NCBI GenBank assembly: GCA_036785375.1
Contig: JAWMAR010001868.1
Coordinates: 62,001 to 126,000, forward strand
DNA: 64,000 nt
Source: Leucoraja ocellata
Taxonomy: Eukaryota
Reading direction: 5' to 3'
Within the stretch, counting starts at the first letter, position 1. The number at the start of each line of letters is the position of its first letter. Below are positions 8,823-58,300 of this stretch, in pieces. The notes beneath the pieces were generated by a model that worked only from the letters and a program-made list of their open reading frames with translations, had not been told where the DNA came from and did no database searches. A program made the translations under genes and the position numbers.

Positions 8823-8868
8823 ATGATGTCGGCGGTTTCACTGAGTTTGTTCCTGGCGTTAATAGTCC
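8823..8868 (+). CDS. IgH leader exon (MMSAVSLSLFLALIV, phase 1)
   Basis: ATG 8823, hydrophobic signal peptide, donor C|GTGAGT at 8869, short intron to the V exon. Confidence 0.92.
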
Positions 8869-9041
8869 GTGAGTGATGTTAGACAAATTCCCCACGCAAG
8901 TGTCTCAGTGATGTATCCACTACACCATTCCCCTTCTACCCACTCTAGAACCGTCCCAATTATTTCCTCTTGATAATTAGAGTCGGGGATCAATGGTCAA
9001 TATTTTATCCTCGCCATTCATGCCTTGTTTTTAACTTGCAG

Positions 9042-9397
9042 GTGTCCATTCCGATATCGTTCTAACCCAGCCCAAGACAGAGACGGCCACTCCTGGAGGC
9101 TCCATCACACTGAACTGTAAAATCAGCGGGTTCAGTGTTGGCAGCAAGTGGATGGCTATGGTCCGTCAGGTCCCCGGGCAGGGGCTGGAGTGGCTGCTTC
9201 ACTACCTCTCTCCTGGTAGAGAGTACTTCGCTCCGGGGATAAAGAGCCGATTTACTCCGTCCAACGACAATACGAATAATATCTTCACCGTGACGGCCAG
9301 GAGCCTGAAGGTCGAAGACACGGCTGTCTATTACTGTGCGAGAGGCCAGCAGGGATTGGCTACTGGGGAGGAGGCACCATGTTGACGGTAACCAACG
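9042..9397 (+). CDS. Joined VH-D-JH exon (V 9042-9343; D/N 9344-9355; J 9356-9397), J shifted out of frame
   Basis: Acceptor ttgcag|GT. V translates to [98 protein letters not shown] reads [13 protein letters not shown] (WGxG motif) in another frame, followed by donor G|GTAAGA at 9398. No CACAGTG heptamer follows V. Confidence 0.95.
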
Positions 9398-13558: not shown

Positions 13559-13855
13559 CAGCTCCATCCGCGCCCAGTCCCTTCATTCTCTTCACCTGCG
13601 AGGATCAAGGCTCCAGTGGTTCGTTCACCTATGGTTGTTTGGCGTTGGGCTATTCCCCTGCGGGCGCCAGTGTTTCTTGGAAGAAAGATGATATAAAACT
13701 GGAGACCGGAGTGAAGGGCTACCCGGCAGTGTTCAATAAGTTGGGAACTTACACCCGGAGCAGCGAGTTAACCATCACCGAGGCGGCGGCAGCGGGAGGT
13801 GACATCTTCTGCGTGGTTCAGCACAACCAGAACGAGTATAAAGTGAAAGTACCAG
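13559..13855 (+). CDS. IGHM: IgM CH1 exon
   Basis: ttgcag| (A)APSAPSPFILFTCEDQGSSGSFTYGCLALGYSPAGASVSW...DIFCVVQHNQNEYKVKVP |GTTCGT; 297 nt; C1-set C/W/C pattern plus an N-terminal Cys at the position expected for the light-chain bond. Confidence 0.93.
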
Positions 13856-15214: not shown

Positions 15215-15532
15215 TCCGCGTGGTACATCATCCTACCGTCACCATTACCATAACTGCTCTTGATGAAATTAAGCGCAGCAGAAAGGCGATCGCCGTGTGT
15301 TTGGTCAACGATTTCACCCCAGCCAAATTTACTGTGAACTGGCTGAAGAATGGAAAGCCATTGGATTCTGGCATCGTCACCTCTCCCGCCTTCCAGGTGA
15401 ACGGTACCGGTAACTTCTCGGCGACCAGCCAGTTGACATTCACAGCTGAAGAGTGGTTCGGAGATTTCGTCTATACCTGCCAAGTCAACCATGAAAAAGA
15501 TTTGAAAAGCCAAAACATCAGTATGTCTTCAG
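15215..15532 (+). CDS. IGHM: IgM CH2 exon
   Basis: tttcag| VRVVHHPTV...AVCLVNDFTPAKFTVNWLKNG...YTCQVNHEKDLKSQNISMSS |GTAAGA; 318 nt. Confidence 0.95.
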
Positions 15533-15982: not shown

Positions 15983-16285
15983 ATGATGATTCCTGCGACA
16001 AACTGATTATTAAAATCCTTCCACCACAAGTTGAACAAGAGTTAATGGAGATGACCGTGACGTTAACCTGTCTGGTATCCGATGCACCTTATGGTATCAC
16101 AGTATCTTGGAAACGTGGGAATGTACATTTGGTATCATACATCCAGCCCACAGGACATGCAGATATCGTACAGAGCAAAGTCAACATTTCGACTCAAGAC
16201 TGGCTGAGTGGGGATTATTTCGAATGCGTGGTGAGCCATGGTAATATGCCAAAGCCAAAAACTGAACGAATCAACTGGAAGAAAG
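15983..16285 (+). CDS. IGHM: IgM CH3 exon
   Basis: ccacag| DDDSCDKLIIKILPP...LTCLVSDAPYGITVSW...DWLSGDYFECVVSH...INWKK |GTGAGC; 303 nt. Confidence 0.95.
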
Positions 16286-17397: not shown

Positions 17398-17789
17398 GTC
17401 AACATCTGCTGCCACCTTCCCTCTCAGTCCTTCTGCCGCCGACAGAAGAAATCTCCGCGCACAAGACTATCACCCTCACCTGCTTCGTGAGAGGATTCTC
17501 CCCTCGCAGGGTCTTCGTCACGTGGACACTTGATGACAAGCGGGTGGATGAGAGCAAGTACAAGAACACCGAGGTGGAGGCGGAGAACGGCAATGATACC
17601 TTCTTCACATACAGCCTGTTATCCGTTGGGGCAGAGGAGTGGGCTAGCGGAGCCTCCTTCTCCTGTCTAGTGGGGCACGAAGCACTCCCCATGAAGACCA
17701 TCGTCAGAACGGTCAATAAGTCCAGCGGTAAACCCAGTTTTGTCAACGTTTCCCTTGTATTAATGGACACTGTCAATTGCTGTCAATGA
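17398..17789 (+). CDS. IGHM: IgM CH4 exon plus secretory tailpiece
   Basis: ccctag| [15 protein letters not shown]...[17 protein letters not shown]...[11 protein letters not shown]...[22 protein letters not shown]. Internal donor G|GTAAAC at 17728 serves the membrane form; the tail has an NVS glycosylation site and a penultimate Cys. Confidence 0.96.
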
Positions 17790-17816: not shown

Positions 17817-17832
17817 AATAAATGCTAATAAA
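17817..17832 (+). terminator. Polyadenylation signals of secreted IgM mRNA
   Basis: AATAAA at 17817-17822 and 17827-17832, shortly after the stop codon. Confidence 0.75.
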
Positions 17833-20027: not shown

Positions 20028-20721
20028 GTTAGAATTTAAGCAAACTTATACATGATGATACACATCTAGCTGGTTACAGGCAAACGGAAGGGCCAATCAG
20101 ATCATTTTTCCAGTAGTTTTCCCCGCGTTCCTAAAAACTAAGTATAACCGTAGATCATTCATGCTCCATATTTTACATTAGAAATATAATGCCTATCAAA
20201 TGGTTCAAAGTTATATTTGTGTACACAAGCCTTCCTCCATCTCCTAACCGAAAACAGGATACATCAGCCAACAGGGTTCTAATGTGGGAATGATGGCACA
20301 TTATTGGGAGCCAATGTTTCCATTCAGTGAGTTCCTTCACCGAGCTCCGGTCACCATATCCAAATACAGGGTTATCTGATAACATTGTAAGCAATAACCA
20401 GCTCCAAGTGTTATACCATCCTGGTTAGTAAAATATATTAATGGGAAGCGGACGTTTATAGAATGAGTAATGAATCCCAGAAAGATGCAAACACATTGCT
20501 TTCCCCAAACTATTCATAAACGGCTGTTTATTAGCAGCTGTGTCTACAAGTGGCCATGGTTGTGGATACAATTGTTGAGGATGGATGATCACCTCAATGT
20601 AAAAACAGCTCATAGGAAATTAATATCCCTAATATTAATATCCCTATTATTTTGGTAAATAATAAATACAATACAATGATTAGAATATATTGTGAACGTC
20701 TTCGCGTTCTGCTTTGCGTAG

Positions 20722-20849
20722 ATTACGCCGACAACGTTCCTCTAGAGGACTATGAGGAAGACAGAGACAATATCTGGACAACCGCTTCCACATTCATTAT
20801 CTTGTTCTTCCTGAGCATTTCCTACGGTGCTGCCGTAACTCTGGTGAAG
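20722..20849 (+). CDS. IGHM: IgM TM1 exon
   Basis: gcgtag| DYADNVPLEDYEEDRDNIWTTASTFIILFFLSISYGAAVTLVK |GTGAGT; acidic spacer plus conserved antigen-receptor transmembrane motif; phase matches the donor at 17728. Confidence 0.95.
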
Positions 20850-20983
20850 GTGAGTCCATTGCACTTACTTTTCCACCTGATTGAAGTGTAGGGCAAAATA
20901 GCGATTGTCCTACTCATTGGATGTCCTGGCATCTTAGTCACAGACTGCTAATACACTTTCATATTCTCTCCCTCTCTTTACAG

Positions 20984-20992
20984 GTCAAGTGA
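20984..20992 (+). CDS. IGHM: IgM TM2 exon (VK-stop, giving the KVK cytoplasmic tail)
   Basis: Polypyrimidine tract + tacag| GTC AAG TGA; AATAAA at 21157-21162. Confidence 0.92.
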   Translation, partial: VK

Positions 20993-21984
20993 CGATTGAA
21001 TGTTGAAAACCGCGTATTTATCTGACCGGTCTATGGACGTCGTTGTAACCAAGGGAAATGTTCAAATCAGAAGCGGACAATGTCATAAACAATAGTTCAT
21101 TCTGTCTATCTGGCTTGTTTGATATTGCCTAGTTGCCTTTCGTATAGCGTTAATGTAATAAAATATTTAAATCGTAATTTGAATATTATGTGAAAATAAG
21201 TCAATTTTCTCAAACGGTAGACGTTTCTTTTCTTCTTTTTATCTTTTTTTCTATACATTCTCTTTTTCTTTAGCATGGGCCATATTTGTGTCCTTCTGGT
21301 GTTGAATGCCGTTGTATAGAAAGTCGGGAACGCTGTTTGTGTGAGATCGTAATCTTCATGTTAAATTCAGACACACTATCTATGCCTGTCATTATTCTAA
21401 CAACTTCTACCATGTCCCACTTCAACCTCCGATGCGCCAAAGAAAACAATCCATGTTTGCCTCTTCTAGCTAATAATTCTAACCCGGGCTGCAGCATTCT
21501 AGTAAACCTCTTCTGCATCTTCTCCAAAGCCTCCACATTATCCCCTTGAAGGGACGACCTGACCTCCAAGTGCGGCCTAACCGAAGGCCTGTAAATAAAT
21601 GTCATGTAAATGCACGTGTAAATACATACCCAACAATCCAACGCGTGTGCACATATGAGCAAATATCTATTTACTCCTTTTCTGCTCAATTGTCCTTTCC
21701 TTAATTCAGAGCTAACCTTTGACTCTCGAGCCACATCTTCAATGTACCTGGTCTCAGTGTGGAATTCAGTTGTTTTGACCACTTCGTGTTATGCTTTTAA
21801 AAAGGTCTCTGTAATGTGTTTCTGTTAAATCACAAATAAAAGCGGAACTACAAAAGCCTAACCTGGTTTGCTATATTTGTTTCTCGAAGGAACCAGCACC
21901 TTACGATAAATGCGCACTCGTATTTCATCGCGTTCCACCATTTCCCTCAATATATTTTCTCTCAGATCGTCACTGGCGAGTAGT

Positions 21985-24420
21985 AATAATAATAATAATA
22001 CATTTTATTTATGGGGGCCTTTCAAGTCTCAAGGACATCTTACAAAAATTTAGCAAGTAGAGGAAAAACATGTAAGCGGAATGAAGTAAATAGTAGAGAC
22101 ATGACTAATACACAAATTAAAGACAGAATTCAATTCAAAACACAATATGAGGCAATTCAAGCACAGATGAAAAGGGAGGGGGACGTGAGGCTAAGTATAG
22201 GCAGAGGTGAAGAGATGGGTCTTGAGGCGGGACTGGAAGATGGTGAGGGACACGGAATTGCAGATCATTTGGGGGAGGTAGTTCCAGAGCCTGGGAGCTG
22301 CCCTGGAGAAGGCTCTGTCCCCAAAACTGCGGAGGTTGGACTTGTGGATGGAGAGGAGACCGGCTGATGTGGACCTGAGGGACCGTGAGGGTTGGTAGGG
22401 GGAGAGGAGGTCAGTGAGATATGGGGGGGCCAGATGGTGGAGGGCTTTGTAGGTGAGGACCAGGATTTTGTAGGTGATCCGGTGGGAGATGGGAAGCCAG
22501 TGAAGTTGTTTGAGGACTGGAGTGATGTGATGCCAGGATTTGGTGTGGGTGATGAGTCGGGCAGCTGCGTTCTGGACCAGTTGGAGTCGGTTGATGTAGG
22601 TGGAGCTAATGCCAAGGAGAAGTGAGTTACAGTAGTCCAGTCGGGAGGAGATGAAGGCATGGATGAGTCTTTCAGCAGCAGGAGGTGTGAGAGAGGGTCT
22701 GATCTTGGCGATGTTGCGGAGGTGAAAGAAGGAGGTTTTAATGACATGGCGGATGTGAGGCTCAAGGGAGAGGGTGCAACCAAAGATCACGCCAAGGTTG
22801 CGGGCCTGGGGAGATGGGGAGACAGTGGTGCCATCGATGGTGAGAGTGGGGTTATTGATTTTGCTGAGTGTGGATTTGGAGCCTATGAGGAGGAATTCTG
22901 TTTTATCGCTGTTGAGTTTGAGGAAGTTATGTTGCATCCAGGTCTTTATAGCTGACAAACAGGAGTTGATATGGGAGAGGGGGGGGGGGGGGGGGGTTGT
23001 GGGGGGATTTGGTGCTGAGGTAGATCTGGGTGTAATCGGCGTAACAGTGGAAGTCCAGGTTGAAGTGGCGGAGTATCTGACCAAGGGGGAGGATGTAGAT
23101 GATGAAGAGGAGGGGGCCGAGTACGGAGCCTTGGGGAACGCCTTGAGTGACTGTGGCTGTAGCAGAGGTGTGGTTATGGAGAGAGATGAAGTGGGATCTG
23201 TTGGAAAGGTAGGAACGGAGCCAGCTGAGTGCAGAACCTTCAATGCCAAGGTCCCCAAGTCTGGTGAGCAGGATGTTATGGTTCACTGTATCGAAGGCCG
23301 CACTCAGGTCGAGGAGGATGAGGATGTTGAGGGAACCAGTGTCAGCAGAGGTGAGGAGGTCGTTGAGGACTTTGAGGAGAGCAGTTTCTGTGCTATGGAG
23401 AAAGCCAGATTGGAAGGGTTCAAATAGGTTATACGCAAGGAGGTGGGAATGAAGTTGTGACGCAACGATACACTCCAGGGTTTTTGAAAGAAAGGGGAGG
23501 TTTGAGATTGGGCGGTAGTTAATGAGAGAGGAGGGATCAAGACCAGGTTTCTTTAAGATTGGTGTGACAGCAGCAGTTTTGAAAGCGGAGGGGACAATTC
23601 CTTGGGACAATGAGGAGTTGAAGAGATTAGTGAGGTAGGGGCAGAGAACGGGGAGGCAGGACTTCAGCAGGGGAGTGGGGAGAGGGTTGAGGGAGCAGGT
23701 AGTGGGTTTGGAAGAGCTGATGAGTTTGGAGATTTCAGTAGGGGTGACCAGGTCAAACTGGGAGAGGAAGCGTGTGGAGGAGGGGTAAGGAGGTCAGTGG
23801 AGATGTTGAAAGGAGGGGCCTTGGTAGGTGGTGGAGTAGAAGCTGGAGAGTCGGGTACAAGGGATAAAGATTGATAGATGGTGCTGATTTTATCAGCGAA
23901 AAAATGGAGGAATGAGTTGCAGAGATCCGGAGTAGAGGTAGGGAGAGTGTTGGTTCGAGGCTTGAGGAGGTTGCCTACTGTGGAGAAGAGGGTTTTGTGG
24001 TTTAGGCAGGGGTCGGTGAATATGGAGGAGAGGTAGGCAGATTTTGCAGCAATGAGGGCATCTTTGTAGGCAGTGAGGTGGAGTTTGTAAGTTTCATGGT
24101 GGACTGTGAGGGATGATTTCTTTGTGAGTCGTTCAAGTCGGCGACCAGTCTGTTTCAGCTTACGAAGTGCAGGCGTGTACCAGGGTGAAGATGTGTTAAA
24201 AGCTACGGTTCTAGTTTTGAGGGGGGCCAGAATGTTAGCCAGGTAGACAAGGTGGAGTTGAGATGGTTTGTGAGATCATCAGGTGAGATATGGGTTGAAT
24301 CCAGGGGGAGAGTGGTGGAGAGCAGGTCAGAGAGATGGTGGGGATCGATGGATTTTAGATTACGGAAGGTGATTTCTCGGAGGAAGCGGGGGCGAGGTGT
24401 CGGTGAAGGGACAGGAGTTA
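21985..24420 (-). mobile_element. L2-clade LINE, 5'-truncated
   Basis: ORFs 22927..23610 and 22191..23258: NYRPISNLPFLSK, LLDLSAAFDTVNH, GVPQGSVLGP, HCYAD, LIHAFISSRLDYCNSLL, HITPVLKQLHWLP; (TTA)n tail at 21985. Confidence 0.92.
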
Positions 24421-24476
24421 CTTCGATTATGCGACCATTGCGCGCTCGGGTGTCCGATGACGTTAAGGTCATGTAT

Positions 24477-25378
24477 AGGGAGGTTTCACGGCAGTCGGGT
24501 CACGACCCATGACCCGTACTGTTGCTACACCACTCAAACTGGAGTACAAGCGATGAACTGCAGGTAGGCACTAACCATTGTTTCCAGCGTAGTGGGCCCG
24601 TTAAAACCCGCTGAAATTATCAATTTTTGCGCTGTAAATAATTATGGAAACCGGGATAAGCTGAGAGACATTTAGCCTACTTCAGAATTCCAAACGGGAG
24701 TAGAAATGACGGTAGATAGAAGCGAGAGCTGAAGGGACAACAACAGACAGAGTGCTTGGCGAACATTGGCCTTTTGCTCACTGCATTTCATCAACTAAGG
24801 CATTATTTGAAGGTTTTTTCTTGATTCCTTTGGCATCTAAAAAGTTTCAGAACTGATAAATCAGGCTGTAAAATTTTAAAATCTCCCATAGTTCTCAAGT
24901 GGGTTTTTACCTACAAAATGAAAACTTATCTGAAGCAAAATTTACAGCTAGATTTATCACTTCTGAGACTTTTTAGATACCAAAGGAATCAAGAAAAACC
25001 ACAAATAATGTCTTACTGTTGATGAAATGCAGTGAGCAAACGCGATGATTCCCAATATTTTCAATTCCGATATCTGCACGGCCAATGTTCGCCAAGCACT
25101 TTAGCTGCTGTTGTCCCTTCAGCTCTCACTTCTCTTTACCTTCATTTCGCTTCACGATTGGAATTCTGAAGTTGGGTACATGTCTCTCACGCTTACCCCG
25201 ACTTACACAATTTTTTACAGCGCTATAATTCAATATTTTTGGGATTTTTAACAGGTAGGAAAGTACGCGTTTCTTGCATTAATAAAATATACCGGAAGTT
25301 ACGGATGTCCTCCAGATGAATTGAGCGGCCCCGTGCGTCAAGCCCTATGACCCAGTGACCTTACGTGCACACCCCCCT
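24477..25378. mobile_element. Foldback MITE, possibly PIF/Harbinger-like
   Basis: Termini AGGGAGGTTTCACG / CGTGCACACCCCCCT flanked by TAT on both sides; long internal inverted arms (~24660-24880 vs ~24945-25195). Confidence 0.7.
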
Positions 25379-26564
25379 TATATTTGAATGCATTTTATGC
25401 CAAAGTTCCAGGAGAAGAGCGACCACGTAGGCGCTTTTCACAACCGCCCCTTATACAGTAGCCATCTTCTACAAATAGGTCGTTGTGGTGAACTGTTTGC
25501 TCCACCAAGCTCTAAGCAATATCACAATGCCTTCTGATATTACTGTCGAATATTCCAAAAAATGTTTCAAAGCAATGAGAGTACACTTGATACAGCTGAC
25601 ACTGGCACAGAGATCAGCAAAGTACATGGGTATGATTCTGGGCATGGAGTCTAGAACGGGTAAGATGAGACAATGATAGACATTAAGAATTAATCACCAG
25701 CATCTAGAGTTAGCTGGGATCACATTACTCCAACGGATAGTAAATGAGTTCAGATCGATTTGCCTGTTACCCATCTTGGGCAGCTTTCACTTAGACATTG
25801 GTTGGGCCTTTGACGGTGGGTGAGTGAGGTAGTCCGAGTGACTTCAGAGTGAGCCCCCAAATTAAGAATAGGCCACACGGAGCCACAAAGCCACTCATCC
25901 CACTAGTTGGGTATCCTGGACTACTCTCAGCTGATTGCATTTGGCCCATTCAGTGCACTATCAGGGTAACCGCGACTAAAGTGATTGGGCCCAGAGTACA
26001 TTGAATAGAGATTGAGCCTACTTTCTGTGGCATCATGCAACACCAACACTGAATGGGCCTTGTGTTTTCGGACCTTACATTGTTTGAATACTGAGTGGGC
26101 CTGGCGTCATGGGCCCCAATATCGGGCCAGTGTTTCCCTCCAGTTACCACCTTAGGAGACATAGAGTTAGATGTTTTGCCACAAAAGTGGAAGGCAGTGG
26201 GAGCAGTAATATGGCAGGAATAGGCTTCTTCGCCCCGGGACCAAATAGAGCCCTTACCGGGTACATAAAAGTGCACCTGATGTGCTTAGATTCCCGCGGA
26301 GGCTCCGGCCAATAGTTTGGTAGAAGCTGGTTATACCAAGGGTTTGGCGTAGAGCAGGGGGAATGTTCATTCCCAAGAAGAAAGAGTCTCCAGAGTTAAA
26401 TCAGTTTAGGTTATTTGTCTCCTAAATGTAGAAGGCAAGATTTTCTTTTGGATAGTGGCACAGAGGCTAGCAAGTTATTTAGAATGAAACAGGTTAATTG
26501 ATACCACAGTGCAGAAAGTAGGTATACCAGGGTTCGCAGGTTACTTAGAACAGATTAGTAAAAT

Positions 26565-29285
26565 ATAGAAACATAGAAAATAGGTGCAGGAGGAAGCCGT
26601 TCGGCACCCATTCAATATGATCATCCAAAATCATTACCCATTTCCTGCTTTCTCCCCATATCCCTTGATTCCGTTAGTCCCAAGCAGTATATATAGCTCT
26701 CTCTTGTAAACATCCAGTGAATTGGCCTCCACTGCCTTCTGAGACAGAGAATTCCACAAATTCACAACTCTCTTGCTAAAAAAAAAGTTTTTCCTCATCT
26801 CAACAGTAAATGACCTAGCCCTTATTCTTAAACCGTGCCCCATATGTCTGAACTCCCCCCAACATCAGGAACATTCTTCCCGCATCCAGCCTGTCCAAAC
26901 CCTTAAGAATTGTATATGTTTCTATAAGATCTCCTCTCATCCTTCTTAATCCCTTCATTTAAGCCCAGTCGATCCATTCTTTCATCATATGTCGGTCCAG
27001 ACATCCCTGGAATTAACCCTGTGAACCTACGCTGTACTCATTCAATGACAAGAATGTCCTTCCGCAAATTAGGGTCCAAAACTGCACATGATGCTCAGGT
27101 GTGTTCTCACCAGAGCCCTGTACAACTGCAGTTGGTCCTCCTTGCTCCTATACTCAAATCCTCTCGCTATGAAGGACAACTTGCCAGTTGCTTTCTTCAC
27201 TGCCTGCCTAACCTGTATGCTTACTTTCAGTGACAATTGTACAAGGACACACAAGTCTCGTTGCACCTCCCCTTTTCTTAATCTGACACCATTCAGATAA
27301 TAATCTGCCTTCTTGTCCTTGCCACCAAAGTGGATGACCTCACATTTATCCACATTATACTGCATCTGCCGTGCATCTGCCCACTCACCCAACCTATCTA
27401 ACTCACCCTGTAGCCTTAAATAATCCTCCTCACAGCTCACACTACCACCCAGTTCGGTGACATCCGCAAACTTGGAGATGCGAAATTTAATTATTTTGTC
27501 TAAATCATTAATCTATATTGAAAATCCTAGCATTGAACCGTGTGGGCACCCCACCCGTCACGGCCTGACATTCTACAACGGGCCCGTTAATTCCTACTCT
27601 TTGCTTCCTGTCTGCCAACCAGTTCTCTTTTCAAAGGCCTTTTGAAAGTCCAGATGCACCACATCCACAGGCTCTCCCTTATCCATTTTCCCTCTTACAT
27701 ACTCAAATAATTCTAGAAAATGAGTCAATATTGGAAAATGATCACAAATACATCCGCGATTTCAAGGGTCACCTCCTTGTGTTGTTTCGGATGCAGACCA
27801 TCAGGCCCTGGGGATTTACATGTCTTCTGTCCCAACAGTTTACCTAACAACATTTCCTGAATCATGTGGATTCCCTTCACTTCCTCCCTCCCACTAGATC
27901 CTCGGTCCCCTTGTATTTCTGGGAGACTGTTTGTGTCTTCCTTAGTGAAGACAGAACCAAAGTATTTGTTTAACTGATCTGCCAATTTCTTGGTCACCGT
28001 TACAAATTAACCTGTTTCTTACTGTAAGGGGCCTATATTTGTCTTCACTAATATTATCCCCGCAAGTTTCCTTTCATGCTCCATTTACCCCACTTCATTA
28101 ATCCCTTTATCATATAACCATATAACAATTACCGCCACTGAAACAGGCCATCTCGACCCTTCTAGTCCGTGCCAAACACGTATTCTTCCCTAGTCCCATA
28201 TACCTGCGCTCAGACCATAACCCTCCATTCCTTTCTCATCCATATAACTATCCAATTTACTTTTAAATGATAAAAACGAACCTGCCTCCACCACCTTCAC
28301 TGGAAGCTCATTCCACACAGCCACCACTCTCTGAGTAAAGAAGTTCCCCCTCATGTTACCCCTAAACTTCTGTCCCTTAATTCTCAAGTCATGTCCCCTT
28401 GTTTGCATCTTCCCTCCTCTCAGTGGGAAAAGCTTATCCACGTCAACTCTGTCTATCCCTCTCATCATTTTAAAGACCTCTATCAAATCCCCCCTTAACC
28501 TTCCGCGCTCCAAAGAATAAAGCCCTAACTTGTTCAACCTTTCTCTGTAACTTAGTTGCTGAAACCCAGGCAACATTCTAGTAAATCTCCTCTGTACTCT
28601 CTCTATTTTGTTCACATCCTTCCTATAATTAGTCGACCAAAATTGTACCCCATACTCCAGAATTGGCCTCACCAATGCCTTATCCTCCTCTGTTAAATTT
28701 TAAATTTCCCCCAGTCCACCGGTTTGCTGCTTTATCTGGACAATTTATATGCCTGGATTTAACATTCCCAAATTTCCATCATTTGCCATGGTTGAGCCGC
28801 CTTCCCTGTTTTATTTTTACACCAGACAGGGGTGAACAATTGGTGCAAATCATCCATAGGATCTTTGAATGTTTGCCATTGCATATCTAGCCTTTAAGTA
28901 CATTTGCCAGTTTATCCCAGCCAATTCCCACATCATACCGTCAAAATCTGATTCAGTTTGATCACAGTTATGAATAGCTATGGCACTAGATTCAGACTGC
29001 CAAGCTCGAGAGAAGAGGTTTGCATGGCCTTCATAACAAGAAGAGTTGAGTATAGGAGCAAAGTAGTCCTTCTGCAGTTGTACAGGGCCCTGGTGAGACC
29101 ACACCTGGAGTATTGTGCACAGTTTTGGTCCCCTAATTTGATGAAGGACATTCTTGCTAATGAGGGAATGCAGCGTAGGTTTACAAGGTTAATTCCCGGG
29201 ATGGCGGGACTGTCATATGCTGAGAGAATGGAGCGGCTGGGCTTGTATACACTGGAATTTAGAAGGATGAGAGAGGATCTTAATG
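26565..29285. mobile_element. Cluster of CR1 fragments (mostly - strand; + strand fragment 29015-29285)
   Basis: ORFs 26634..26843, 27069..27440, 27725..27997, 28190..28675 (-) and 28958..29314 (+) all encode CR1 ORF2 pieces. Confidence 0.85.
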
Positions 29286-33039: not shown

Positions 33040-35140
33040 TAATCACCACTAAACCCCTCTAACCCCCACTAAACCAGTGAAAACCTCTCTAAACCCATCC
33101 AAACCCGTCCAAACCCGCCTAAACCTATCTAAACCCCTCTAACGCTCTCTAACCCCGCTAAACACGGGAATAGTGCTGGAGGATTGGCGTACTGCGCATG
33201 TTGTTCCATTGTATAAAAAGGGGTCTACGAGTAAACCTAGCAATTATAGACCTGTTAGTTTGACGTCAGTGGTGGGCAAATTAATGGAAAGAATACTTAG
33301 AGATAATATATATAAGCATCTGGATAAACAGGGTCTCATTAGGAACAGTCAACATGGATTTGTGCCTGGAAGGTCATGTTTGACAAATCTTCTTGAATTT
33401 TTTGAAGATGTTACTCGGGAAATTGATGAGGGTAAAGCAGTGGATGTTGTGTATATGGACTTCAGTAAGGCCTTTGACAAGGTTCCTCATGGAAGGTTGG
33501 TTAAGAAGGTTCAATGGTTGGGTATTAATGGTGGAGTAGCAAGATGGATTCAACAGTGGCTGAATGGGAGATGCCAGAGAGTAATGGTGGATGGTTGTTT
33601 GTCAGGTTGGAGGCCAGTGACGAGTGGGGTGCCACAGGGATCTGTGTTGGGTCCACTGTTGTTTGTCATGTACATCAATGATCTGGATGATGGTGTGGTA
33701 AATTGGATTAGTAAGTATGCAGATGATACTAAGATAGGTGGGGTTGCGGGTAATGACGTAGAGTTTCAAAGTCTACAGAGAGATTTATGGCAGTTGGAAG
33801 AGTGGGCTGAAAGATGGCAGATGGAGTTTAATGCTGATAAGTGTGAGGTGCTACATCTTGGCAGGACAAATCAAAATAGGACGTACATGGTAAATGGTAG
33901 GGAATTGAAGAATGTAGGTGAACAGAGGGATCTGGGAATAACTGTGCACAGTTCCCTGAAAGTGGAATCTCATGTAGATATGGTGGTAAAGAAAGCTTTT
34001 GGTGTGCTGGCCTTTATAAATCAGAGCATTGAGTATAGAAGTTGGGATGTAATGTTAAAATTGTACAAGGCATTGGTGAGGCCAATTCTGGAGTATGGTG
34101 TACAATTTTGGTCGCCTAATTATAGGAAGGATGTCAACAAAATAGAGAGAGTACAGAGGAGATTTACTAGAATGTTGCCTGGGTTTCAGCAATTAAGTTA
34201 CAGAGAAAGGTTGAACAAGTTAGGGCTTTATTCTTTGGAGCGCAGAAGTTTAAGGGGGGGACTTGATAAAGGTTTTTAAAATGATGAGAGGGATAGACAG
34301 AGTTGACATGGAAAAGCTTTTCCCACTGAGAGTAGGGAAGATTCAAACAAGAGGACATGACTTGAGAATTAAGGGACTGAAGTTTAGGGGCAACATGAGG
34401 GGGAACTTCTTTACTCAGAGAGTGGTAGCTGTGTGGAATGAGCTTCCAGTGAAGGTGGTGGTGGCAGGTTCGTTTTTATCATTTAAAAATAAATTGGATA
34501 GTTATATGGATGGGAAGGGAATGGAGGGTTATGGTCTGAGCGCAGGTATATGGGACTAGGGGAGATTATGTGTTCGGCACGGACTAGAAGGGTCGAGATG
34601 GCCTGTTTCCGTGCTGTAATTGTTATATAAACACCTACAAACCCTCTATTAAACCTCTCTAAAACCCTCTAAACAACTCTGAACACTTCTAAAGCCCACT
34701 AAATTCCTCGGCTCCCTCTAAACCCCTCTAGACCCCCTGTAAACCCCTCTAAACCCTATAAACCACTCTAAACACATCAAAAGCACTCTAAACCCCTTTA
34801 ACCCCTGTATACCCCTCTAAACCCCTCCAAAGCCCACTAAACCCCTCGAAAGCTCTCTAAACACATCTAAAGCCCTCCAAACCCCATCCAAACCTCTCTA
34901 AACTCGTTTAAACCCGTCTAAACCGCACTAAACCCCTCTGATTCCATCTAAACCCCTCCAAACCCCTGTAACCCCTCGAAAAACCTTTAAACCCGTCTAA
35001 ACACTTCGAAATATCTCTAAACCCCCCTAAGCCCCTCTAAACCCCTTGAAACTCCTCTAGACTCCTCTATGCCCATCGAATCCCCCTCTAAACACTTCAA
35101 ACCCCCCACACCTATCTAATCCCCTCTAATTCTCCTCTAA
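33040..35140 (-). repeat. Degenerate 10-mer satellite (CCCCTCTAAA)n, interrupted by a CR1 insertion
   Basis: Repeated aaacccctct units at 33040-33165 and 34630-35140. Confidence 0.9.
33166..34628 (+). mobile_element. 5'-truncated young CR1 LINE (RT + C terminus)
   Basis: ORF 33173..34279 (NYRPVSLTS, YMDFSKAFD, GVPQGSVLGP, KYADD); frameshift at a G run into ORF 34263..34559. Confidence 0.93.
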
Positions 35141-39502: not shown

Positions 39503-42500
39503 TAGAAACATAGAAACATAGAAATTACGTGCAGGAGTAGGCCATTCGGCCCTTCGAGCCTGCACCGCCATTCAATATGATCATGGCTGATCATCCAACA
39601 CAGTATCCCGTACCTGCCTTCTCTCCACACCCTCTGATCCCCACAAGGGCCACATCTAACTCCCTCTTAAATATAGCCAATGAACTGGCCTCAACTACCC
39701 TCTGTAGCAGAGAGTTCTAGAGATTCACCACTCTCTGTGTGAAAAAAGTTCTCCTCATCTCGGTTTTAAAGGATTTCCCCCTTATCCTTAAGCTGTGACC
39801 CCTTGTCCTGGACTTCCCCAACATCGGGAGCAATCTTCCTGCATCTAGCCTGTCCAACCCCTTAAGAATTTTGTAAGTTTCTATAAGATCCCCTCTCAAT
39901 CTCCTAAATTCTAGAGAGTATAAACCAAGTCTATCCAGTCTTTCTTCATAAGACAGTCCTGACATCCCAGGAATCAGTCTGGTGAACCTTCTCTGCACTC
40001 CCTCTATGGCAATAATGTCCTTCCTCAGATTTGGAGACCAAAACTGCACGCAATACACCAGGTGTGGTCTCACCAAGACCCTGTACAACTGCAGTAGAAC
40101 CTCCCTGCTCCTATACTCAAATCCTCTTGCTATGAAAGCCAACATACCATTTGCTTTCTTTACTGCCTGCTGCACCTGCATGCCTACCTTCAATGACTGG
40201 TGTACCATGACACCCAGGTCTCGCTGCATCTCCCCCTTTCCCAATCGGCCACCATTTAAATAATAATCGGCTTTCCCGTTTTTGCCACCAAAATGGATAA
40301 CCTCACATTTATCCACATTATACTGCATCTGCCAAACATTTGCCCACTCACCCAGCCTATCCAAGTCACCTTGCAGTCTCCTAGCATCCTCCTCACACCT
40401 AACACTGCCCCCCAGCTTAGTGTCATCTGCAAACTTGGAGATATTGCCTTCAATTCCCTCATCCAGATCATTAATATATATTGTAAATAGCTGGGGTCCC
40501 AGTACTGAGCCTTGCGGTACCCCACTAGTCACTGCCTGCCATTGTGAAAAGGACCCGTTTACTCCTACTCTTTGCTTCCTGTTTGCCAGCCAGTTCTCTA
40601 TCCACATCAATACTGAACCCTCAATGCCATGTGCTTTAAGTTTGTATACTAATCTCTTATGTGGGACCTTGTCGAAAGCCTTCTGGAAGTCCAGATACAC
40701 CACATCCACTGGTGCTCCCCTATCCACGCTACTAGTTACATCCTCGAAAAATTCTATAAGATTCGTCAGACATGACTTACCTTTCGTAAATCCATGCTGA
40801 CTTTGTCCAATGATTTCACCACTTTCCAAATGTGCTGCTATCCCATCTTTAATAACTGACTCTAGCAGTTTCCCCACTACCGATGTTAGACTAACTGGTT
40901 TGTAATTCCCCGTTTTCTCTCTCCCTCCCTTCTTAAAAAGTGGGGTTACGTTTGCTACCCGCCAATCCTCAGGAACTACTCCAGAATCTAAAGAGTTTTG
41001 AAAGATTATTACTAATGCATCCACTATTTCTGGAGCTACTTCCTTAAGTACTCTGGGATGCAGCCCATCTGGCCCTGGGGATTTATCGGCCTTTAATCCA
41101 TTCAATTTACCCAACACCACTTCGCGACTAACCTGGATTTCACTCAATTCCTCCACCTCCTTTGACCCGCGGGCCCCTGCTATTTCCGGCAGATCATTTA
41201 TGTCTTCCTTAGTGAAGACGGAACCAAAGTAGTTATTCAATTGGTCCGCCATATCCTGGTTCCCCATGATCAACTCACCTGTTTCTGACTGCAAGGGTCC
41301 TACATTTGTTTTAACTAATCTCTTTCTTTTCACATATCTATAAAAACATTTGCAGTCAGTTTTTATGTTCCCTGCCAGTTTTCTTTCATAATCCATTTTT
41401 CCTTTCCTAATTAAGCCCCTCGTCCTCCTCTGCTGGTCTCTGAATTTCTCCCAGTCCTCTGGTATGCTGCTTTTTCTGGCTAGTTTGTACGCATCATCCT
41501 TTGCTTTGATACTATCCCTGATTTCCCTTGTTATGCATGGATGCACTACCTTCCCTGATTTATTCTTTTGCCCAACAGGGATGAACAATTTTTGTAGTTC
41601 ATCCATGCAGTCTTTAAATGCCTTCCATTGCATATCCACCGTCAACCCTTTTAGAATGAATTGCCAGTCAACCTTGGCCAATTCACGTCTCATACCCTCA
41701 AAGATACCTTTCTTTAAGTTGAAAACCATTGTTTCTGAATTAACAATGTCACTCTCCATCCTAATGAAGAACTCAACCATATTATGGTCACTCTTGCCCA
41801 AGGGGCCACACACAACAAGACTACTAACTAACCCTTCCTCATTACTCAATACCCAGTCTAAAATAGCCAGCTCTCTCGTTGGTTCCTCTACATGTTGATT
41901 TAGATAACTATCCCGCATACATTCCAAGAAATCCTCTTCCTCAGCACCCCTGCCAATTTGATTCACCCAATCTATATGTAGATTGAAGTCACCCATTATA
42001 ACTGTTTTGCCTTTGTCGCACGCATTTCTAATTTCCTGTTTGATACCATCTCCAACTTCACTACTACTGTTAGGTGGCCTGTACACAACACCCACCAGCG
42101 TTTTCTGCCCCTTAGTGTTTCGCAGCTCTACCCATACCGATTCCACATCCTCCAAACTAATGTCCTTCCTTTCCATTGCATTAATCTCCTCTCTAATCAG
42201 TAACGCTACCCCACCTCCTTTTCCTTTCTCTCTATCCCTCCTGAATATTGAATATTCCTGGATGTTCAGCTCCCAGCCTTGGTCACCCTGGAGCCATGTC
42301 TCCGTGATCCCAACTATATCATAGTCATTAATAGCTATCTGCACATTCAACTCATCCACCTTATTACCAATGCTCCTTGCATTGAGACACAAAGCCTTCA
42401 GGCTTGTTTTTACAACACTCTTACCCCTTATACAATTATGTTGACAAGTGGCCCTTTTTGATTTTTGCCCGGGTTTTGTCTGCCTGCCAATTTTACTTTT

Positions 42501-43820
42501 CACCTTGCTACCTATTGCTTCTACCCTCATTTTACACCCCTCGGCCTCTACGCTCACACATTTAAGAAACCCTTTCCCTTTAACTCCATCCTCCACTATC
42601 CCATTCGACACCCCACCCCCCTTATTCAGTTTAAAGCCACCCGTGTAGCAGTGGCAAACCTGCCTGCCAGAATGCTGGTCCCACACCTGTTAAGATGCAA
42701 TCCGTCCCAATTTGTACAGTTCCCCCTTACCCCAAAACAGATCCCAGTGATCTAAGAATCTAAAGCCCTGCCCCATGCACCAGTTCCTCAGCCACACGTT
42801 CAGGTCCCGTATCTCCCTGTTCCTGCTCTCGCCAGCACGGGAAACTGGAAGCAAACCGGAGATAACAACCCTGGAGGTCCTGCTTTTCAACATTTTTCCG
42901 AGCTCTCTAAAGTCACGCTGCAGAATATTCATCCCCTTCTTTCCGACATCGTTTGTGCCGACATGCACTACCACCTCCGGATGTTCACCTTCGCCCTTGA
43001 GGATTTTCTGCACTCTGTCCGTGACATCCTGGATCCTGGCACCGGGAAGGCAGCACACCATCCTCGCATCCCGTCTGTTGCCGCAGAAACCCCTGTCCGT
43101 ACCTCTCACGATGGAGTCTCCCACTACAATGGCCTTGCCTGCCTTAGGCCTTTTTGGTTTTGGCTCAACAGCCCTATTCGCATCGCAAGCCAGTCCGCCG
43201 CTCACGTCTTCTGTCCCAACAGCTTCTAAGCGGGTGAACCTGTTTACAAGAGGTACACCACCCGGGGACGTTGGCATTCCATGCTTCCCTCCCTTTCTCA
43301 CTGTCTCCCACCTTCTCTCTTCCAGTACCTTAGGTGTAACAATCGTACTGTAGGACTTGTCGAGGAACAACTCCGTTTCTCGTACGAAACGGAGGTCATC
43401 CACTTGCTTCTCCAGTTCCCCAACACGGCCCTTCAGGAGCTCCACCTGGATGCACTTTCCACATTTGTAGCAGCCAGAGGCACCAGCGGTGTCCTTGACC
43501 TCCCACATACTGCAAGCATCGCACTGAATCAGCCTTCTTTCGTCTCTCCCTCGCCAGTGTTTTGCGTAGCCTCCTCTCCTCAGCCTCCTCGCTGAAGACT
43601 CTCGAGCCAAAGACTCACACTTTTCTCACAGGGCAGTTCCCTCACTGCCGCTCGCTAAGAGCCGTCTTGCTTAAATTGACTGATAAATTGCCTGATTTAC
43701 CAATTTGCAAAGCAAATTCCTCAGTTTTCAACTGTTTTACCACACTGACTCACTTCTCTCCTCCCACTTGGGCTAGAGCCAATCAGTCGTATCTCTTGCT
43801 AATCTGCTGCTGCTGTTCCT
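39503..43820 (-). mobile_element. Near full-length CR1 LINE (ORF1 zinc finger + SGNH esterase; ORF2 APE + RT)
   Basis: ORF1 42690..43610 has CDAC...CGKC, GDSIVRG and HVGTND, with a late frameshift. ORF2 39717..42686 has LNARS, ETWL, GDFN, SDHN and FADD, ending at a premature stop (QRVVNL*). (TTTCTATG)n tail. Confidence 0.95.
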
Positions 43821-43829
43821 CCCAAATCT

Positions 43830-45804
43830 ACAGCAGATCTGAACCATAAACAGGGTTTATGAAAGGCCGGCAGTCCTCCCACAATACTAGGCGTCTCCTT
43901 AACATCATCAATTCACCAAGTAGTGAGACCCCGGAGATAGTGGTCTCCCTCGACGCTGAAAAAGCTTTCGACAGGGTCAAGTGGAAGTACCTATACGAGG
44001 CGATGGACAGGTTTGGCCTCGGCAATAGTGTCATTCATTGGGTCAGTCTATTATTCTCGTCCCCGGTGGCCTCAGTACATACAAACGACACACTGTCGCC
44101 CCACTTCCCCCTTCGGAGAGGTACCAGGCAGGGTTGCCCGTTATCACCACTTCTGTTTGCTGTCGCGATAGAGCCCTTGGCGGTTTGGTTACGCTCAGAG
44201 AAGGCCTTTAAAGGTATCACACGGTTTGACACAATTCATAAAGTCTCATTGTATGCGGATGACCTGCTCCTGTACATCTCGAATCCAGTCAGCTCTCTCC
44301 CTGTGATTACGAATATTTTAGAACGGTTTGGTGCATACTCTGGTTATAAACTTAACTACCAAAAAAGTGAACTATTACCGATTAACTCATCGGCTAAGCA
44401 GCTCCCTCGTTCTTTAACCTCATTTAAATGGGCAGAGGACGGATTTCGCTACCTCGGCGTTTTTATCACAATACCTATATTTGATATGTTCCGCACAAAC
44501 TTCCTGCCTCTGGTTGAGAAAGCTGAAAGAGACTTTGACCGCTGGTCAGTTTTACCGTTATCCCTCGCGGCCCGGATAAATCTGGTTAAGATGGTCGTCC
44601 TACCCAAATTCCTGTACCTTTTCCAGCATGTTCCTATATTTATCATTAAATCTTTTTTTGATAAATTAGAAAGGAGAATATCTAAATTTTTATGGTGTAG
44701 CAAACCGGCCAGAATTCGAAAGACGGTACTACAGTCTCCTAAGAGTGACGGCGGTTTGGCACTTCCTGACTTTAGGCGAAACTACTGGGCTGCTAACTTG
44801 CAAAAAATCCTGTACTGGATGAATGATGATTGCGACCACCTACCGACCTGGGTACACATGGAAAAGGCGAGTTCACATCTCCCGTTGCGGTCTGTCCTAT
44901 GCTCTCAACTCCCCCTTTCTATAACATCTGCGGGTGCAGGCCCAATTGCATCCGTCTCGCTCAAGATATGGAGTCAACTTAGGAAAAACTTCGGTTTACA
45001 AGGCCCTTACATCTTGACCCCACTGCTTAAAAATCACATCTTTAAACCTTCAAGTACAGACTCTGCATTCAAAACCTGGCATAGTAATGGCATCAGCAGT
45101 ATCAAAAACCTATACAAGGATGGCTTTTTTTTGTCTTTTGCAGAGCTTTCGTCCAACTATAGCCTCCCAAACTCCCACCTTTTTCGTTTTTTCCAGATTA
45201 GGGATTTTGTGAAGAAGATATTCCCCCATTTCCCAAATCGTCCCTCTAAAACCATGACCGATTCCATCCTAGCTCTAGATCCCAACCGGAAGAAATGCAT
45301 CTCTTTTTTGTACAACTTGTTAGGGTCGGTTATATTGAAACCTCATACCTCATTAAAAGCTGTATGGGAGGGCGAGCTGAATACGAAACTAACAGGCCAT
45401 CAATGGGACTCTGCCTTGGATTTGATCCATTCTTCCTCCATATGTGCCCATCATGGTCTAATCCAATGCAAAGTCCTTCACAAAGTCCACTACACAAACG
45501 CAAGATTATCTAGAATATAGCCCGCTGTTAAAGACACCTGCAACAGATGCAATCAATCCCCTGCCAACCATAGTCATATGTTTTGGTCTTGCCCTATTGC
45601 AGCTGCTATCCCCTCAACCCCTCCCCACAGTGGTATGTGAGTGTTGTTTGTCCCCGGGTGGCGAGGGTGGGTAAGGGTAAGGGTTTTGAGGGTCGTTTAC
45701 ATACTGTTGTACAATTATGTCCTGACTATCACTGTCTGTTATCATTGTATGTATGCAAATTGCTGTTAAATTCAAAATTCAAATAAAAAGATTTAAATTA
45801 AAAA
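43830..45804 (+). mobile_element. L1-clade LINE, 5'-truncated (RT + C-terminal region)
   Basis: ORF 43859..45520: SLDAEKAFDRV, RGTRQGCPLSPLLF, SLYADDLLLY, GGLALPD; AATAAA and A-rich end at 45782-45804. Confidence 0.92.
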
Positions 45805-49394: not shown

Positions 49395-51719
49395 GTATAA
49401 ACCAAGTCTATCCAGTCTTTCTTCATAAGACAGTCCTGACATCCCAGGAATCAGTCTGGTGAACCTTCTCTGCACTCCTTCTATGGCAATAATGTCCTTC
49501 CTCAGATTTGGAGACCAAAACTGTACGCAATACTCCAGGTGTGGTCTCACCAAGACCCTGTGCAACTGCAGTAGAACCTCCCTGCTCCTATACTCAAATC
49601 CTTTCGCTATGAAAGCTAACATACCATTCGCTTTCTTCACTGCCTGCTACACCTGCATGCCTACTTTCAATGACTGGTGTACCATGACACCCGGGTCTCA
49701 CTGCATCTCCCCTTTTCCTAGTCGGCCACCATTTAGATAATAGTCTGCTTTCCTGTTTGTGCCACCATAATGGATAACCTCACATTTATCCACATTATAC
49801 TGCATCTGCCAAAAATTTGCCCACTCACCCAGCCTATCCAAGTCACCTTGCAGTCTGCTAGCATCCTCCTCACAGCTAACACTGCCCCCCAGCATAGTGT
49901 CATCCGCAAACATGGAGATATTGCCTTCAAATCCCTCATCCAGATCATTAATATATATTGTAAATAGCTGGGGTCCCAGCACTGAGCCTTGCGGTACCCC
50001 ACTAGTCACTGCCTGCCATTGTGAAAAGGACCCGTTTACTCCCACTCTTTGCATCCTGTTTGCCAGGCAGTTCTCTATCCACATCAATACTGAACCCCCA
50101 ATGCCGTGTGCTTTAAGTTTGTATACTAATCTCTTATGTGGGACCTTGTCGAAAGCCTTCTGGAAGTCCAGATACACCACATTCACTGGTTCTCCCCTAT
50201 CCACGCTACTAGTTACATCCTCGAAAAATTCTATAAGATTCGTCAGACATGATTTACCTTTCGTAAATCCATGCTGACTTTGTCCAATGATTTCACCACT
50301 TTCCAAATGTGCTGCTATCCCATCTTTAATAACTGACTCTAGCAGTTTCCCCACTACCGATGTTAGACTAACTGGTCTGTAATTCCCCGTTTTCTCTCTC
50401 CCTCCCTTCTTAAAAAGTGGGGTTACGTTTGCTACCCGCCAATCCTCAGGAACTACTCCAGAATCTAAAGAGTTTTGAAAGATTATTACAAATGCATCCA
50501 CTATTTCTGGAGCTACTTCATTAAGTACTCTGGGATGCAGCCTATCTGGTCCTGGGGATTTATCGGCCTTTAATCCATTCAATTTACCCAACACCACTTC
50601 CCGACTAACCTGGATTTCACTCAATTCCTCCACCTCCTTTGACACGCGGTCCCCTGCTATTTCCGGCGGATTATTTATGTCTTCCTTAGTGAAGACGGAA
50701 CCAAAGTAGTTATTCCATTGGTCCGCCATATCCTTGTTCCCCATGATCAACTCGCCTGTTTCTGACTGCAAGGGACCTACATTTGTTTTAACTAATCTCT
50801 TTCTTTTCACATATCTATAAAAACTTTTGCAGTCAGTTTTTATGTTCCCTGCCAGTTTTCTTTCATAATCTATTTTTCCTTTCCTAATTAAGCCCTTTGT
50901 CCTCCTCTGCTGGTCTCTGAATTTCTCCCAGCCTTCCGGTATGCTGCTTTTTCTGGCTAATTTGTATGCATCATCCTTCACTTTGATACTATCCCTGATT
51001 TCCCTTGTTATCCACGGATGCACTACCTTCCTTGATTTATTCTTTTGCCAAACTGGGATGACCAATTTTTGTAGTTCATCCATGCAGTCTTTAAATGTCT
51101 TCCATTGCATATCCACCGTCAACCCTTTTAGAATTAATTGCCAGTTAATCTTGGCCAATTCATGTCTCATACCCGCAAAGTTACCTTTCTTTAAGTTCAG
51201 AACCATTGTTTCTGAATTTACAATGTCACTCTCCATCCTAATGAAGAACTCAACCATATTATGGTCACTCTTGCGTTAATCTCCTCTATAATCAGCAACG
51301 CTACCCCACCTCCTTTTCCTTTCTCTCTATCCCTCCTGAATATTGAATATCCCTGGATGTTCAGCTCCCAGCCTTGGACACCGTGGAGCCATGTCTCCGT
51401 GATCCCAACTATATCAGAATCATTAATGGCTATCTGCACATTCAACTCATCCACCTTATTACGAATACTCCTTGCATTGAGACAAAAAGCCTTCAGGCTT
51501 GTTTTTACAACTTTCTTACCCCCTTATACAATTATGTTGAAAAGTGGCCCTTTTTGATTTCTGCCCTGGTTTTGTCTGCCTGCCACTTTTACTTTTCACC
51601 TTGCTACCCATTGCTTCTACCCTCATTTTACACCCCCTGCCTCTCTGCACTTGTACCCATCCCCCTGCCACATTAGTTTAAATCCTCCCCGACAGCACTA
51701 GCAAACACTTCCCCAAGGA

Positions 51720-55276: not shown

Positions 55277-55357
55277 CAAAGATCCTATAATGGAGCAAGA
55301 TAGTTTACTGCTGCCAAATGCAATGGGCTGACGTGAAGACCACTACGGTGGGGATCC
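55277..55357 (+). mobile_element. Left end of a second copy of the 48085-49394 DNA transposon family
   Basis: CAAAGATCCTATAATGGAGCAAGATAG...AAATGCAATGGGCTGACGTG aligns by eye to 48085-48165. Confidence 0.7.
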
Positions 55358-58300
55358 AACTTTATTCCTTTTCCTTTCCCTCCACACTCTAGAAGTTTCT
55401 TTACTGATATTTCTGTCAATCCAATTTTCCTCATTTCAATGATCATAAATCCTCTTTCTGTCTCATATCTCCTACATGCAACTAGGGCATGCTGAACTGT
55501 TTCTGGCTGTTGGCATTCCTCACACAGCCCAGTAGGGTGTTTTCCCAATATTTTTAATGTGCTGTTCAGGTGAATGTGTCCTATCCTCCATCTTGTTAAT
55601 ACTACCTGTTCCCTCCTGTTCCCCCCTCTTCTTGCTGCAATGCCCACTCTGTTTTGTATCGAATAGAGGTGTCTCCCCTTTGTCTCCTGTTCCCAGTATT
55701 GTTGCCATTCCTGATTTATTTTCTTCCACACAATGTGTTTTCCTTCAGATTTGGATAGTTGTAAGTTTACCTCTATGTTTCTTTTTTTTTTTAAAGCCTC
55801 CTTTGCTAATTTATCCACCTTTTCATTCTCTAGAACACCAATGTGTGCTGGGACCCACAACAAAGTCACGTCACTGCCCCTCCTTGTCACTTGGCTTAAT
55901 AGTAGCAGGATTTCATAAACTAAGTCAGGCCGCCTATGGGATGCACCAGACCCAATACTCTGGATTGCAGATAATGAGTCGCTACATATTAATACTTTAC
56001 ATGGTTGCATCAGTTCCATCCACCGAACTGCCATCAAAATAGCGTACAGTTCCACTGTATATACTGTCAAATAGTTATTTGTTCTTTTGTAAAGCTCAAC
56101 ATTCATCCCCTGGACTACCACCGCCGCCCCTGTTGTTTCAGCTACTGGGTCCTTTGATCCATCTGTGAAAATTAAGAGGTGTTCCCTGTATCTATTATCT
56201 ATATGGTTATGATATTCTGTCTTTAGGTCTGAATTTTTGTTCCTCCTTTTTGCCTCCCATATCTCCAGATCAACTTTTGGGATGTTCAGTAACCATATTG
56301 GCACAGATGGCCACAATACTGCAGGGCAGAACTCTTTGTCCTCTACTCCCATGTCCCTTGCCACAACTCCTCCAACCCAGCCGAAGCTTCCAGACTGAGC
56401 CACCCCTCTCTCCCAGGAAACGGAAATCTTTTACTCTTTCCAAATTGTTGCCGTATACTTTTAACTGGACATCCTCTTTAATTTTTTTCCTTGTGAAAAC
56501 CATTGTCTTTGTCTTCTCTATAGAGAAGTTAAAACCCCATTTCCCTCCCCACTCTTCCACCTGGGCTATCCCTTGCTGTACTTTTTCCATGATAAAATCT
56601 ATATTCCTCCCCCTTCTCCATAGGCTGCCATCATCTGCAAAGAGCGATCGCCCCATCTCTGGTTGAATGTTTGCAAATATATCATTGATCATGATTGAGA
56701 ATAGGATCGGGCTTATCGCACTTTCCTGGGGAGTTCCATTCTCGACTACACATTTACTAGAGATGTCTGACCCTATTTTAACTTGGATACTTCTACCGTT
56801 GAGAAAATCCATTATCCAGTTAAAAATATTTCCTCCTATTCCCATTAAATGCAGCTTTATTAGAAGACCTTCTCTCCACAACATATCGTAAGCCTTCTCT
56901 ACATCAAAAAATATGGTAACTACAGATTCTTTTTTGACTTGTGCTTTCCTTATCTCATCTTCCAAGCACAGAACTGGATCATTAGTACCTCTCCCTTTTC
57001 TAAAGCCACTCTGATAATTAGCCACTATACCTTTTTCTTCCATTAGATGCATTAATCTTTCATTTACCATTCTTTCCATCAGTTTACACATGTGTGCTGT
57101 TAAAGCTATAGGTCTATAATTTACTGGATTACTTGCATCTTTCCCTGGTTTTCTAATAGGCGCAATGATTGCTTCCTTCCACCTCTCCGGTATTCGCCCT
57201 TCCTCCCACACCTTGTTATATAGTGCAAGTATCTTTTGGAGTCCCTCCTCACTTAGATGCTTTATCATTATGTAACAAATATCATCCTTCCCTGGGGCTG
57301 AGTTCTTATACTTGGCCAGAGCTCTCTTTAGCTCCCCCAAATTAAATGGAATATTGTACTTGTCCTCTGTGATACCTTTCCTTTGTAAGGCCTCAACATT
57401 TTCCTCTCTTGTTCTTTCCCTACCTCTTCTTCCTTCATCTGATAAGTTGTGGGAGCTGTGAACCCTACTATAAAGTGTTAACCATTAGTTCTGCTTTGTC
57501 TTTATTTGAGATTACAGTTTGATCTCCATTTGTTAGGATAGGATAACTCCACTCCCTTTTATCACCTTCCATTTTTTTAAATCATCCCCCATATCTCCCC
57601 TACCTATGTTGTGCTTCCAATTGAATCACAATACTTCCTCCAATATGCTCTTTTTGTTTGTCTTATAGTCCTCCTTACAATTGCCTGAGCCTGTTTGTAA
57701 TTAATCATGTGTTGGTAGATATGAGTTATTTTTAATAATCTGAATGCTCTGTATCTATTCACCACCACCACTTTACACTTATTGTCCCACCACGGCACAG
57801 CTTTCCTTTTTGATCTTCCTTTACTTTTAGGTATGGAAACTAATGCTGTTCTTTTGATACCTTCTGACAATTTATTCTCAAAGCTTTCTATATCTGTCTC
57901 TTCTTGTATCGGTTTTACATATCTAACACATTCCTCCTTAAATTTCTCCCAATTATCCTTTCCAAAAACCCATCGTCCACTTCTGTTTTCTTTACTCATA
58001 ATTAAAGTAACATTTATTTTGCATAGCACATGACGATGATCACTTCCTATGGTACCCTTTTCATATACTTCCCAGTCACATTTAGCAGCAATCCTATTAG
58101 AAACAAGCGTAAGGTCCAACACAGACTCCTTCCCTGTCCTAACATCTACCCTGGTCTTCTTTCCATCATTTAGACATACTAGATTACCATCATTTAATAA
58201 TTCCTCAATTACCAGCCCATTATTATCTGACTTTCCACTGCCCCATAATGTATTATGTGCGTTAAAGTCCCCACACCAAATAACATTAGATTTGCTCTGG

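Follow-up and report, generated by a model that had tools for sequence, protein, structure and literature searches.

An IgM heavy-chain cluster of Leucoraja ocellata with V, D and J fused out of frame: a likely germline join and predicted antibody pseudogene

Our results indicate that the genome of Leucoraja ocellata carries an IgM cluster in which V, D and J have been fused out of frame, probably by RAG in the germ cells of an ancestor, and which is predicted to be an antibody pseudogene; we put the probability of this reading at about 0.8. The cluster lies in the window, that is, the whole stretch of 64,000 nucleotides analysed (assembly GCA_036785375.1, contig JAWMAR010001868.1, positions 62,001 to 126,000), and its features are listed in Table 1. 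As assembled, no heavy chain can be made from it, because the frameshifted join stops before CH1, and the loss of every RSS should bar the cluster from further rearrangement. The simplest outcome for such a locus is a pseudogene.

Table 1. Exons and joint of the fused IgM cluster (window positions)
Feature	Position	Strand	Remarks
Leader exon	8823..8868	+	ATG 8823, phase-1 donor
V segment of fused exon	9042..9344	+	mature V from 9053; Cys codon 9335-9337; Pfam V-set E 7e-12
Junction insert, 11 nt	9345..9355	+	7/8 D1 core match, possible 4-nt D2 remnant, 2 likely N bases
J segment	9356..9397	+	trimmed by 6 nt; not in frame with V; donor at 9398
Premature stop TGA in V frame	9383..9385	+	12 nt before exon end
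CH1 exon, open	13559..13855	+	Pfam C1-set
CH2 exon, open	15215..15532	+	Pfam C1-set
CH3 exon, open	15983..16285	+	Pfam C1-set
CH4 + secretory tailpiece	17398..17789	+	membrane-form donor after 17727; AATAAA at 17817 and 17827; Pfam C1-set
TM1 exon, open	20722..20849	+	open reading frame
TM2 exon with stop codon	20984..20992	+	open frame to stop

The RSS-less fusion of V to J at 9042-9397 had been described in the initial annotation, and its letters, its coordinates and its donor, GTAAGA at 9398, which closes the exon, were all confirmed. A heptamer/nonamer scan allowing a total of at most three mismatches detected no RSS between V and CH1, and gave three weak matches in all, at 2342, 24108 and 39464. 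A 1.19-kb query taken from the sister cluster L003 likewise found no intervening DNA between V, D and J on the contig of the gene. The promoter-side DNA is near-identical to that of the sister clusters L002, L003 and L010. In the position of framework 2 where a VH canonically has Trp (9158-9160), the fused gene has Met, and Leu is found in 39/40 clusters; the leader and a Leu at this position are what we take to be skate-like.

The frame does not bear out the antibody of fixed specificity that had been inferred. The Cys codon (TGT 9335) and the J Trp codon (TGG 9364) are offset by 29 nt, with 26 nt in between, which places V and J out of frame; the V frame runs for 15 residues past the Cys and then meets the TGA. 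The frameshift had been overlooked; the parse given in the initial annotation has 12 + 2 nt separating the Arg codon from the J Gly codon. Translation of the assembled, spliced message gives 129 aa and stops 12 nt upstream of the VDJ/CH1 junction. To call the CDR3 very short was also an overstatement: its 26 nt, or 8.7 codons, fall within the 4-17 codons (mean 11.6) given for nurse shark cDNA in the accessible text of PMC2435157, where the CDR3 limits may be set differently. Rescue of the frame by splicing was considered and rejected by eye. A single in-phase GT, at 9381, lies between Cys codon and stop, and it has no consensus base from +3 to +6; the GT at 9336 would remove the Cys codon, and those at 9311 and 9326 are out of phase.

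The exons downstream are those of a complete mu-type locus. As had been stated, CH1 to CH4 are kept together with the secreted and membrane exons: leader, CH1-CH4, secretory tail, TM1 and TM2 all have GT-AG borders and open frames, and the C region before its stop would amount to 435 aa in the secreted form and 460 aa in the membrane form. One V-set domain plus J followed by four C1-set exons is the layout of an elasmobranch IgM (mu) cluster, and a mu-type CH4 with secretory tailpiece, TM1 and TM2 is present. CH4 with its tail has its best PDB matches mostly in Ig mu chains (E about 1e-47); among the top nine, eight are named Ig mu and one is unnamed. The protein searches returned 13 matches of 33-43% identity, none of them named as cartilaginous fish and none in the near-length range. 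No further Ig exons were found in the 64,000-nt window. A private change at 17779 replaces a Ser of the secretory tail by Cys, so that two cysteines stand side by side.

Compared with L002, its nearest sister (97% over promoter and V), the fused cluster has a V shorter by 1 nt, a J shorter by 6 nt, an insert of 11 nt, and no trace of about 1.17 kb that includes every RSS. The breakpoints thus lie 1 and 6 nt from the heptamer positions of sister clusters, V retaining 10 of the 11 nt between the Cys codon and the heptamer position of its nearest sister. Trimmed ends, an insert and a split sister are what is expected of a RAG-type coding joint, and the accessible part of PMC2193156 describes this pattern for shark germline joins. 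Comparison of the junction with D segments of sister clusters, proposed in the initial annotation, gave a 7/8 match of the insert to the D1 core, with a chance of 0.022-0.025 against random 11-mers and of 0.068 against shuffles, which is suggestive of a D1 remnant. A 4-nt remnant of D2 is possible and not significant.

Several other origins were rejected. All introns are present, which excludes a processed retrocopy, and an ordinary deletion would not place both ends at RSS positions with 11 nt inserted. A search for a second fully joined copy returned a single match, the gene itself. The search for an unrearranged parent allele in the assembly gave nothing above 97% (40/60 candidates scored). 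Re-insertion of an excision circle was also discarded, all 39 matches to the intervening DNA being at V-bearing clusters (40/41 candidates scored).

The following course of events may be proposed. RAG, acting in one step or more in a germ cell or an early embryo, would have cut an unrearranged cluster similar to L002 at its RSS; V would have lost 1 nt and J 6 nt, while D remnants and a few N bases stayed in the joint. The resulting 26-nt junction would have missed the frame, as 2/3 of random joins do, or the frame may have been lost by a later indel, and the out-of-frame allele would then have been inherited. Any transcript is predicted to encode a peptide of 129 aa, leader plus V, that lacks the strand contributed by J; as several exon junctions lie downstream of the stop, nonsense-mediated decay of the message is expected.

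The fused cluster is one member of a large family. A search of the 3.44-Gb assembly with the V query gave 40 matches of 72-100% identity (150/409 candidates scored), read here as 40 loci (L001-L030 and L032-L041), and 33/33 exact matches to the J pattern adjoin one of these 40 V matches. Among the 40 clusters found, 20 are unrearranged, 13 are VDD-J, four VD-D-J, one VD-DJ, one V-DDJ and one VDDJ. Pre-joined clusters thus make up 20/40 of the IgM type, and the fused gene is the only fully joined one. The intervening DNA of L003, with 39 matches genome-wide and none on the contig of the fused gene (40/41 candidates scored), gives the same split independently, 20 full and 4 + 13 + 1 + 1 partial matches. 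V exons are intact in 40/40 clusters. The tree (40/40 rows kept; midpoint root for drawing only) pairs the fused gene with the unrearranged L002 (95/83). A 97% similarity to L002 runs at least 6.7 kb past TM2 (window 20028-27728), that is, the duplicated unit exceeds the gene. No genome-wide census of joined IgM clusters was recognised by title or start of abstract in the literature searched, most subscription papers lying outside it.

Identical junctions are shared by three clusters (L005-7), by four (L014/16/17/18), and by two in each of two further cases (L009/10 and L027/33). A join that is later duplicated must be heritable, and these multi-copy identical junctions are explained only by germline joining. 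The D-J join of the sister L034 also occurs in contigs of two runs from two studies, one of which may be the source sample; these contigs part from the fused gene at 9360 and continue with a stretch equal to that of L034. Inside a VDD-J junction, the V-D1 junction of a VD-D-J cluster is found again, either unchanged or with a single base altered (L024 against L027/L033, L011 against L009/L010), which suggests stepwise germline joining over generations, a point left undecided by the tree. The D-J step has yet to take place in 17/19 partial joins, which parallels the preference of shark lymphocytes for joining V to D1 reported in the accessible text of PMC2435157.

Some members of the family have peculiarities of their own. 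In L037 (G000:C1356, about 249740-250200, minus strand), D sequence is missing altogether and a trimmed J directly adjoins the 5' RSS of D1; judging from this arrangement, V and J of the cluster would be joined by a single rearrangement, in a light-chain-like manner. The J of L039 lacks one G at its Trp-Gly codons, and the three copies L005-L007 are without the three bases directly before the J Trp. A 3-nt boundary difference in the CH3 of L002 and L013 is not a frameshift. Taken together, the 40 related IgM clusters, with six joining states and at least 13 distinct junction strings, are material to date germline RAG events, and the same set can be used to ask why D-J usually stays open (17/19 partial joins).

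The fusion, the cluster type and the C exons of the germline-joined IgM that had been annotated all stand; its germline status is supported indirectly and is unconfirmed by reads. Four of 24 listed runs were examined, three DNA-type and one RNA. Among the 24/176 contig pieces listed for the three DNA-type runs, none bridges 9343-9356, and contigs drop rare variants. At the private base 8881, two DNA runs show only the sister base, and the allele may be absent there or have been dropped in contig building. Further private bases around the junction lie at 9158, 9201, 9220, 9301, 9311 and 9647. About 5% of the RNA run was read, with 0 reads found, an outcome that carries no weight for expression. 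Shares of words in the runs, among which no RNA run was listed as a holder, reached 0.43, while the sisters alone cover 0.61 of the words, so these shares are no evidence. What favours a germline join in the fused gene is indirect: half of the family is pre-joined, the assembly gave no unrearranged parent among the candidates scored, and the private changes are even. As to the latter, 4/32 private intron changes fall in the first 1.5 kb after J, compared with 3-8 in eight clean sisters, and they are spread evenly over 8 kb; the fused cluster shows no hypermutation gradient. Its V has five private changes, none of them adjacent.

That the assembly captured a somatic rearrangement of lymphocyte DNA, the alternative raised in the initial annotation, is very improbable. 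It would fit the accessible text of PMC2435157, in which non-productive VDJ are the majority in DNA of nurse shark spleen and thymus, and it would fit a junction that is single-copy and was not seen in the other runs among the pieces listed. Of the 12 clusters compared in its subgroup, with multi-copy families represented by a single member each, the fused gene also has the most private V changes (5, the 11 sisters having 0-4), and it has the longest terminal V branch (0.039) of its 18-member subgroup, and the germline evidence from multi-copy junctions concerns the sister clusters only. However, somatic joins are unique per cell and would not be expected to become the consensus of a contig of 191,816 bases, the search of the assembly for an unrearranged parent gave no match better than 97% apart from the gene itself (40/60 candidates scored), and both tandem private changes and a gradient are lacking.

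A different objection concerns the frame itself. An in-frame, germline-joined IgM of fixed specificity with four C domains could be hidden by a 1-nt assembly error in the junction, and for this reading speak the intact state of all other coding exons and splice sites, a weak deficit of private changes in the C exons, a run of three G within the junction where homopolymer indels are the error mode of the assembly, and the existence of noisy loci such as L011. In an alignment from J to CH4 of the fused cluster and nine sisters (8,000 ungapped columns), the fused cluster has one private 1-nt indel, which is intronic and outside homopolymers, against 0-2 in eight sisters and 36 in the noisy L011 (32/36 in homopolymers). 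By our own arithmetic from one indel in 8,000 columns, an error within about 30 junction bases has a chance of about 0.4%, whereas 2/3 of random joins are out of frame. No second lesion marks the fused gene as a pseudogene, but a private divergence of about 0.4% predicts few further lesions, so their absence says little. A frameshift due to an assembly indel is unlikely, and an in-frame antibody gene at this locus is very improbable. L011 itself (L056-L057, G000:C546), with its 36 private 1-nt indels in 8 kb, is likely a poorly polished stretch whose frameshifted C exons are no sign of a pseudogene.

Lastly, the RAG join may have ended the antigen-binding site of a cluster that is still used. 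After a germline out-of-frame join, its C exons could act as a switch acceptor in a C-only IgM locus that takes a foreign V, its V could be a gene-conversion template, or its J-less V peptide could be a VpreB-like partner. According to the accessible text of PMC4279169, the nurse shark V of one cluster is expressed with the C of another, and some V gene conversion occurs; Lee et al. have proposed that joined genes were put to new use as VpreB and as the VD pseudogenes of the chicken (PMC2193156, accessible part). In the C exons, where private bases lie at 13560 and 17779, two private changes were found against a neutral expectation of 6.2, a deficit that is marginal (P = 0.052; Fisher test against sisters 0.053) in a statistic whose P varies from 0.001 to 0.999 among the sister clusters. 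A recent join accounts for the intact exons equally well, and the position of the stop predicts decay of the message. Continued use is thus improbable. If true, a J-less VpreB-like VH would supply the direct example whose absence Lee et al. 2000 noted for their hypothesis.

Outside the cluster, long open frames lie at 22194-23793, 33143-34276, 39720-43625, 43850-45517, 49701-51275, 55288-58713 and 63235-63999, the longest single frame having 990 codons on the minus strand (39720-42689). By eye, they presumably encode proteins resembling those of retrotransposons.

An out-of-frame germline join with a predicted pseudogene as its product thus remains the reading that we prefer. The fused gene alone matters little, in that a claimed hard-wired antibody is removed and a failed germline join takes its place. 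A join that is frameshifted agrees with the idea of RAG acting blindly in germ cells, with selection coming afterwards.

Joined H clusters were reportedly described in horn shark and little skate, by Kokubu in 1988 and Harding in 1990. The joined IgH of horn shark and skate (VD-J, VDD-J, VD-DJ and VDJ) have the same single V-(D-D)-J-C cluster with the RSS removed, mixed with split ones. In the accessible text of PMC3308330, joining, partial or complete, is given for about 50% of the IgH loci of elasmobranchs, compared with 20/40 in the Leucoraja ocellata assembly, and nothing is different in kind; that of PMC2435157 mentions clearnose skate IgH with a VDJ joined in the germline. According to the part of PMC2193156 available, the joined H genes of horn shark were not detected as expressed. 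The nurse shark NS4 light-chain genes, as described there, resemble the fused gene in having joined genes among close split genes, trimmed coding ends and joins of both kinds (4/6 joined genes in frame, 2/6 not), and differ from it in being light-chain genes with one join and no D segments. Nurse shark IgM1gj is similar in carrying a fully joined VDJ on a mu-type cluster. However, IgM1gj is without CH2 and is expressed as protein in neonates, according to the accessible text of PMC4279169 and PMC5192425, whereas the fused gene retains CH2 and is out of frame. The fused gene is most likely a locus of a known kind, a germline-joined IgH, rather than an antibody gene like IgM1gj.
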